Shown here piece by piece: positions 14,692-14,892 of a stretch of DNA of 64,000 nucleotides. Each line of letters opens with the position of its first letter. The first letter of the stretch is position 1. The DNA lies in assembly GCF_000027125.1 (NCBI RefSeq), contig NC_017626.1; one strand, written 5' to 3'. Under the pieces are notes generated by a model, which had not been told where the DNA came from, did no database searches, and worked only from the letters and a program-made list of their open reading frames with translations. A program made the translations under genes and the position numbers. This stretch comes from Escherichia coli 042 (lineage in GTDB: Bacteria > Pseudomonadota > Gammaproteobacteria > Enterobacterales > Enterobacteriaceae).

Positions 14692-14892
14692 TTGTCATCC
14701 CTGTCGCTATGCGTTCAGATTAAATGACCTTTCTTTAACATGAGAGAAAATGATGATTCATGATTAGCAAATGATGAATACAGGCGGAATAATGGAAATA
14801 ACAACAAGATAAGAACAATACCTGATCAAGGATTATCAGGAGGAAGAACAAGAGAGCTTCCCGCCAGAGCAGTAACCCCTCCTGTAAATACG

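Follow-up and report, generated by a model that had tools for sequence, protein, structure and literature searches.

A probable distal start codon and a probable extended leader in iatC (air/eaeX), an inverse autotransporter adhesin gene of Escherichia coli 042

The 5′ end of a very large adhesin gene of Escherichia coli 042 raises two questions: at which codon its translation begins, and what is contained in the short gap that separates it from the gene upstream. The window considered here is the whole stretch of 64,000 nucleotides that was analysed, from contig NC_017626.1. A sequence-only reading of this window had held that the adhesin ORF begins with a non-canonical stretch ahead of a hydrophobic segment, that the real start codon may be internal, and that the 200 bp upstream would hold the promoter, dependent on EilA. 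The best explanation of the comparisons described below, and one that we hold with good confidence, is that ATG 14691 is the true start and opens an extended leader at the 5′ end of the adhesin.

Gene identity and genomic context

On the minus strand, the ORF 3271..14691 opens with the ATG at 14691 (ATG1) and comprises 3806 codons, with the translation MAGKAHGNGDRRGDNTICGLGDRLRRLTAGICLITQTIFPVMAAAPTH... An in-frame TGA is located at codon −2 (bases −6 to −4) relative to this ATG, so that 14691 is the 5′-most start possible. The upstream neighbour, nepI, is encoded by the same strand, and positions 14692–14892 are exactly the 201-bp intergenic region from its stop codon to ATG 14691. Since the homology to K-12 ends exactly at the nepI stop, the whole gap is a segment of the selC-B/eip island, which was described for EAEC 042 and ST69 (PMC4210603, PMC7058095). 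In this island the adhesin gene is placed between nepI and eilA; the latter is intact in the window (1522–3219; 565 aa, HilA-like) and convergent with the adhesin gene, and an eipD-like gene is also present. Genes for a RelE/ParE toxin and an HTH antitoxin were observed between yicN and nepI, at about 16305–16971 of the window on the plus strand. The pair occurs in island-bearing strains (L001 1130–1790), and K-12 does not carry it at the same position.

The gene is the known inverse autotransporter adhesin iatC (air/eaeX), of type Ve. The NCBIfam equivalog for the IatC N-terminus, NF040978, matched residues 1–1065 over model positions 1–1065 with 3127.7 bits (cut-off 2400 bits), and the inverse autotransporter beta-barrel, IAT_beta (PF11924), was found at residues 148–423 with an E-value of 3.9e-109. 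C-terminal to the barrel, Invasin_D3 occupies residues 537–633 above its cut-off; Big_1 gave a weak match of 34.6 bits, just below the cut-off of 34.9 bits. The Pfam LysM model did not reach E ≤ 0.001 on IatC. The block TxPYTLGALES...LNQFRTFARGFD is common to YeeJ, in which the LysM was assigned by Prosite (PMC5595812).

The 5′ region is present in 747 of 5426 complete E. coli genomes and is 95–100% identical to the RefSeq iatC/air alleles. The RefSeq name depends on the allele (PGAP), being iatC for some strains but air or EaeX/Air for others, and the start is placed at the equivalent of ATG 14691 in every iatC/air allele fetched. The published accounts of IatC/Air (EaeX) (Goh et al. 2019, PMC6714894; Sheikh et al. 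2006 via PMC4210603) concern the same locus and the same start, with the putative LysM-type N-terminus, the IAT beta-barrel and the Big repeats seen here, and with no essential difference apart from size (3806 aa here against 2933–3709 aa in other strains). Strains with identical or near-identical 5′ ends differ in the length of the product, which has 3806 aa here and in the "air" alleles but 3709 aa in the isolate AF40, and only 2933 aa in SMS-3-5; this range of 2933–3806 aa is due to variation in repeat number. The gene, its regulator and the island have already been described, and nothing in the locus is categorically new.

For the comparisons that follow, four Escherichia lineages of LysM-type inverse autotransporters were used: iatC, iatD, yeeJ and the E. 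albertii orthologue of iatC, whose aligned N-terminal region has 73% amino-acid identity. The features recognised around the 5′ end are collected in Table 1.

Table 1. Features between the nepI stop codon and the signal-peptide region of iatC (window coordinates)
Feature	Coordinates	Strand	Basis
nepI stop codon TAA	14893..14895	-	end of E. coli K-12 homology
First hairpin, just 3′ of the nepI stop	14848..14885	-	RNA fold; inverted repeat I2
Terminator-like hairpin CCTGAT-N8-ATCAGG, then T-rich run to about 14795	14821..14840	-	terminator scan and fold
AT-rich conserved block, about 130 bp	14692..14824	-	allele alignment, GC content
TCAT-rich repeat block, candidate regulator site or promoter part	14745..14779	-	repeat search
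Best weak sigma-70-like candidate, TTCTCT (14748-14743), 18 nt, TTTAAT (14724-14719)	14719..14748	-	PWM 6.1
Shine-Dalgarno AGGGA, 6 nt 5′ of ATG1	14698..14702	-	duplex with 16S rRNA 3′ end
ATG1, proposed true start codon	14689..14691	-	comparative evidence; PGAP uses the same start
Codons 2-11, polar charged tail, sequence unconstrained, length fixed	14659..14688	-	pN/pS; no indels or stops in four lineages
Codons 12-21, RGDNTICGLG, semi-conserved, invariant C18/G19/G21, contains TTG20	14629..14658	-	alignment
Codons 23-45: RLRR cluster, hydrophobic core LTAGICLITQTIFPVMAAA, probable cleavage region	14557..14625	-	sequence; family-conserved core

The upstream gap and its candidate promoter

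The gap can be divided into a part that folds, next to nepI, and a conserved AT-rich part, next to the adhesin gene. RNA folding of 14892–14795 gave a free energy of −25.8 kcal/mol (z −2.18). Among 12 E. coli alleles, the hairpin at 14821..14840 has an invariant stem and a variable loop, and it is probably the intrinsic terminator of nepI, as predicted from its structure.

In the last 120 nt before ATG1 the GC content is 34%, against 56% in the coding sequence. Positions −95 to −1 hardly vary among those E. coli alleles whose upstream region is intact, and the upstream sequence of E. albertii can be aligned with the iatC block from about −133. The block also aligns in part with the regions upstream of yeeJ and iatD, which are unrelated loci; the pieces in common are TCATnT, TCAnnAnT, TG, TTTA and the Shine-Dalgarno AGG. 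This partial alignment at unrelated loci suggests that the block may be a module of promoter and 5′ UTR that predates its association with the EilA island. Presumably the promoter and 5′ UTR of iatC lie within 14692..14824.

The repeat block in this region contains a 12-nt direct repeat, TCATCATTT(G/T)CT, with copies at 14777–14766 and 14756–14745 (21-nt spacing). A 10-nt inverted repeat, ATTCATCATT/AATCATGAAT, overlaps these copies. TCAT occurs six times between −100 and −40, where 0.6 occurrences are expected. All E. coli alleles whose upstream region is intact have this block unchanged, and E. albertii retains just part of it. In strain Z0117EC0005 (L022, NZ_CP098223.1), an IS3-family insertion about 25 nt 5′ of ATG1 (equivalent to about 14716 of the window) removes the whole conserved block, and iatC is annotated there as a partial pseudogene.

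The earlier proposal of a promoter in the 200-bp gap is plausible, but a consensus scan found no consensus sigma-70 promoter on the minus strand of the gap, which is that of the gene. The TTTA of the candidate −10 element TTTAAT is invariant in all four paralogue lineages, and a second candidate, TTCATC-17-CATCAT, scored 5.0; neither this score nor the 6.1 of the better candidate reaches the average of the best scores in shuffled sequences (7.3). The AT-rich block would comprise a short 5′ UTR and a weak promoter, which would probably be activator-dependent and silenced, possibly by H-NS. The absence of a consensus promoter would fit such control. It also fits the silence of yeeJ in laboratory culture (PMC5595812) and the characterisation of iatC only through IPTG-induced overexpression (PMC6714894). 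The locus tags of the island are missing from the text and supplements of the strain 042 H-NS transcriptome (PMC5861252).

The dependence of eaeX/air on EilA in strain 042 is reported in work cited in PMC4210603 and PMC7058095, and it is from this strain 042 literature that the EilA dependence of the gene is taken. EilA is a homologue of HilA, and the region upstream of iatC resembles the HilA-dependent SPI-1 promoters in being AT-rich and in having direct repeats. The HilA box of those promoters has no defined EilA counterpart: an EilA-type site was not established by comparing the upstream regions of iatC, eicA and eilA, and the only 7-mer that they share, TTCATCA, was rejected as evidence (P = 0.16 in dinucleotide shuffles).

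Other types of control were also considered. A Fur box, prompted by the ATCAT repeats, was rejected, with a best match of 11 of the 19 positions of the 19-bp box and P = 0.73 in shuffles. The Rfam covariance models gave no match with E ≤ 1 in 14400–15000. Five GGA motifs are found in 14617–14716 (minus strand, −26 to +75 of the start), and the Shine-Dalgarno region, ACAGGGAUGA, resembles the CsrA SELEX consensus. CsrA-type control is nevertheless a weak candidate, with one GGA only in iatD and no paper found that links yeeJ to CsrA. Derepression of yeeJ in a pnp mutant has been described (PMC5595812).

It is improbable that the gap lacks a promoter for the adhesin gene and that transcripts reading through from nepI are its main source of expression. 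The common strand, the distance of 201 bp and the missing sigma-70 consensus in the gap would all suit this arrangement, but the nepI stop is followed by two hairpins, one of them with a T-run, and the 130-bp block is kept in E. albertii, where the upstream neighbour is not nepI, and in part 5′ of yeeJ and iatD at other loci. In strain 042, moreover, EilA is reported to control the gene together with the eip island. A promoter inside the conserved block is the reading that we prefer.

Start codon and anatomy of the leader

The oddity of the N-terminus is confirmed: a polar, charged stretch of 26 residues precedes the hydrophobic core, which is unusual in a Sec signal peptide. Near the 5′ end of iatC the in-frame ATG, GTG or TTG codons are ATG1, the TTG of codon 20 (TTG20; 14634–14632) and the ATG of codon 42. 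Since ATG42 is already past the hydrophobic core, TTG20 is the only usable internal candidate. The duplex of the 16S rRNA 3′ end with the Shine-Dalgarno sequence of ATG1 has −4.9 kcal/mol; at TTG20 the best duplex has −2.4 kcal/mol with a spacing of 0, which means that this codon has no Shine-Dalgarno sequence. TTG20 is kept in 13 of the 13 E. coli iatC alleles examined, and the predicted accessibility of the surrounding region is moderate (P unpaired 0.57).

The comparison of the four lineages favours ATG1. In all of them ATG1 is located exactly 19 codons before codon 20, and the intervening stretch has neither stops nor indels. A Shine-Dalgarno-like GGGA or GGAAGG stands just 5′ of ATG1 in four of four lineages, with duplex spacings of 3–8 nt and energies that are stronger in the paralogues (−6.0 to −8.6 kcal/mol) than in iatC. 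At codon 20 the duplex has −2.1 to −2.4 kcal/mol and zero spacing in every lineage. The codon itself is TTG in iatC, ATG in yeeJ, CTG in iatD and TTT in E. albertii; the CTG and the TTT indicate that it is not conserved as a start codon. In iatD and E. albertii there is no second in-frame ATG, GTG or TTG ahead of the hydrophobic core. The proposal that the real start is internal is therefore unsupported, given a TTG20 without a Shine-Dalgarno sequence that is replaced by CTG and TTT in the relatives. In addition, IatD was detected at the cell surface after cloning of the annotated ORF (PMC6714894), and that cloned ORF, of 5,241 bp, matches the ATG1 start.

The leader is not uniform in its constraint. 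Residues 2–11 have diverged almost completely among the four lineages, and the pN/pS of these codons is 0.32–0.55 in the closer iatC comparisons and about 0.9–1.65 between paralogues (about neutral), so that by substitution pattern alone they are indistinguishable from non-coding sequence. Their translation is argued instead from the fixed length, from the conserved ATG with its Shine-Dalgarno sequence and from the lack of an alternative start. Codons 12–19, in turn, have a pN/pS of 0.17 (iatC against E. albertii) and 0.33 (iatD against yeeJ). The amino acids C18 (TGT/TGC), G19 (GGA/GGT/GGG) and G21 (GGG/GGT/GGA) are invariant in all lineages, with varying third positions, a pattern that points to translation of the stretch 5′ of codon 20.

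We infer from these data that translation would begin at ATG 14691 by way of the AGGGA at 14702–14698. The product would carry an extended Sec signal peptide of about 43–45 residues, composed of a polar tail of variable sequence and fixed length (residues 2–11), a D-x3-[ILV]-C-G-x-G segment (12–21), the basic RLRR (23–26), the hydrophobic core (27–42) and an Ala-rich cleavage region. The Sec features visible from ATG1 are RLRR, LTAGICLITQTIFPVM and VMA-A, and they are conserved across the family; the basic cluster, the core and the small residues at −3 and −1 together form a putative Sec signal peptide. By the −3/−1 rule, cleavage is predicted, as the probable site, at VMA-AA rather than after AAA, since Pro46 disfavours the latter.

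Clusters of 5′ fragments in public assemblies show one-base losses in two G-runs of this region, G5 at 14629–14634 (codons 20–22) and G3 at 14683–14685 (codon 3), by which the start is shifted to out-of-frame ATGs (MWIGDRLRRL..., MTNGRKAHG...). Either sequencing errors in homopolymers or true frameshift alleles may account for these losses. The frameshifted fragments P0005 and P0011 were set aside, as they come from short-read assemblies and are indistinguishable from homopolymer errors.

Two alternatives to ATG1 as the sole start were weighed. Use of both ATG1 and TTG20, which would give long- and short-leader precursors with perhaps different export kinetics, is unlikely: both codons are capable of initiation in iatC and in yeeJ, and the predicted accessibility of codon 20 is favourable, but this codon has no Shine-Dalgarno sequence, would be occluded by the ribosomes coming from ATG1 and has no start-capable counterpart in iatD and E. 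albertii. Still less probable, and in our opinion very unlikely, is that TTG 14634–14632 is the real and only start and codons 1–19 are 5′ UTR, a reading that would leave a canonical signal peptide of about 24–26 residues (fM-GDRLRRLTAGICL...) and that draws on the ATG at codon 20 of yeeJ, used by the MG1655 RefSeq and in PMC5595812, on the conservation of TTG20 in all E. coli iatC alleles examined and on the lack of amino-acid constraint in codons 2–11 between paralogues, but against which stand the missing Shine-Dalgarno sequence, the CTG and TTT of the relatives, the conservation of C18 and G19 as amino acids, the CG[LI] motif of distant homologues and the missing proximal starts in 8 of 11 lineages, both presented below, and the purely bioinformatic nature of the yeeJ re-assignment. 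A single start at ATG 14691 is the reading kept in what follows.

Leaders in the inverse autotransporter family and the start of yeeJ

A scan of genome contigs for relatives gave just 7 loci, which added little. Far more informative was a profile built on the first 116 positions, which returned 572 matches among 1.84 billion representative proteins. The signal-peptide core of distant inverse autotransporters (proteins P0063–P0189, from many genera) is strongly conserved, with the pattern [RK]x[IVL]AW[ILV]NIxxQxxFP[LV]AxxFTPAxA, and the annotated polar basic leaders ahead of it have 2–57 residues, many of them 12–30. In several distant homologues the motif CG[LI] occurs 8 residues 5′ of the residue aligned to R26. 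As annotated starts are chosen by gene callers, the DNA of six further lineages was fetched and all in-frame starts were listed. In 8 of the 11 family lineages examined (four metagenomic lineages, E. albertii, iatD, Citrobacter werkmanii and Salmonella), no further in-frame ATG, GTG or TTG separates the distal start from the hydrophobic core, and a leader of 13–28 residues must be translated there for any signal peptide to be made. The long polar leader is thus characteristic of inverse autotransporters as a family, and its presence does not point to a mis-called start.

[quoted passage not shown] It occurs in classical, two-partner and trimeric autotransporters (PMC8151025). The IatC leader differs from it in having no sequence match to PF13018 and in the variable sequence of its tail: with the first 67–68 residues of IatC, YeeJ and IatD, neither PF13018 nor any other Pfam model matched at E ≤ 10, and membership of the ESPR was ruled out on this ground. 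A bolder reading, which we regard as doubtful, is that inverse autotransporters carry an extended signal peptide of their own, specific to the family and distinct from the ESPR. In this reading a polar extension of 13–28 residues, in some lineages with Cys-Gly-[LIM] 8 residues before the R26-aligned residue, would be translated ahead of the core AW(L/I)NIxxQxxFP(L/V)AxxFTPA and might tune how these giant adhesins are targeted or how fast they are exported; the start-capable codon 20 of iatC and yeeJ could add a second form with a short leader.

YeeJ of K-12 (PMC5595812) has the same arrangement as IatC, with ATG1, 19 codons, a hydrophobic codon 20 and then RRLTAGICLITQ, with the Shine-Dalgarno sequence in the same position and with upstream DNA that is alignable in part. 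It differs in that its codon 20 is ATG, adopted as the RefSeq start in MG1655, and in that the gene is at another locus, adjoining asnT and without an adjacent eilA. Three starts are found for yeeJ in the databases: one 9 codons 5′ of ATG1 (MLARSGKVS...), ATG1 and M20. The MG1655 RefSeq protein begins at M20 (NP_416485.5, 2339 aa; NC_000913.3 2044995 versus 2044938 for the two codons), and M20 is the homologue of codon 20 of iatC (14634 versus 14691 in the window). Martinez-Gil et al. gave YeeJ 2340 rather than 2358 residues, by bioinformatic analysis only, and built their lacZ fusion on the internal ATG (PMC5595812). The doubt about an internal start in iatC was reasonable, and yeeJ is a real precedent for it. 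However, the ATG1 of yeeJ has a conserved Shine-Dalgarno sequence with −8.6 kcal/mol, and since this sequence and the comparison of paralogues both favour ATG1, the M20 start in the MG1655 reference may be wrong.

For the annotation of air/iatC, then, the comparative evidence supports ATG 14691, and a correct N-terminus is important for surface-display constructs and reporter fusions. The same evidence suggests that the yeeJ start in the MG1655 reference, an internal one, should be examined again; if the inverse autotransporters do have a family-specific extended signal peptide, this curated start (M20) would be mis-set.
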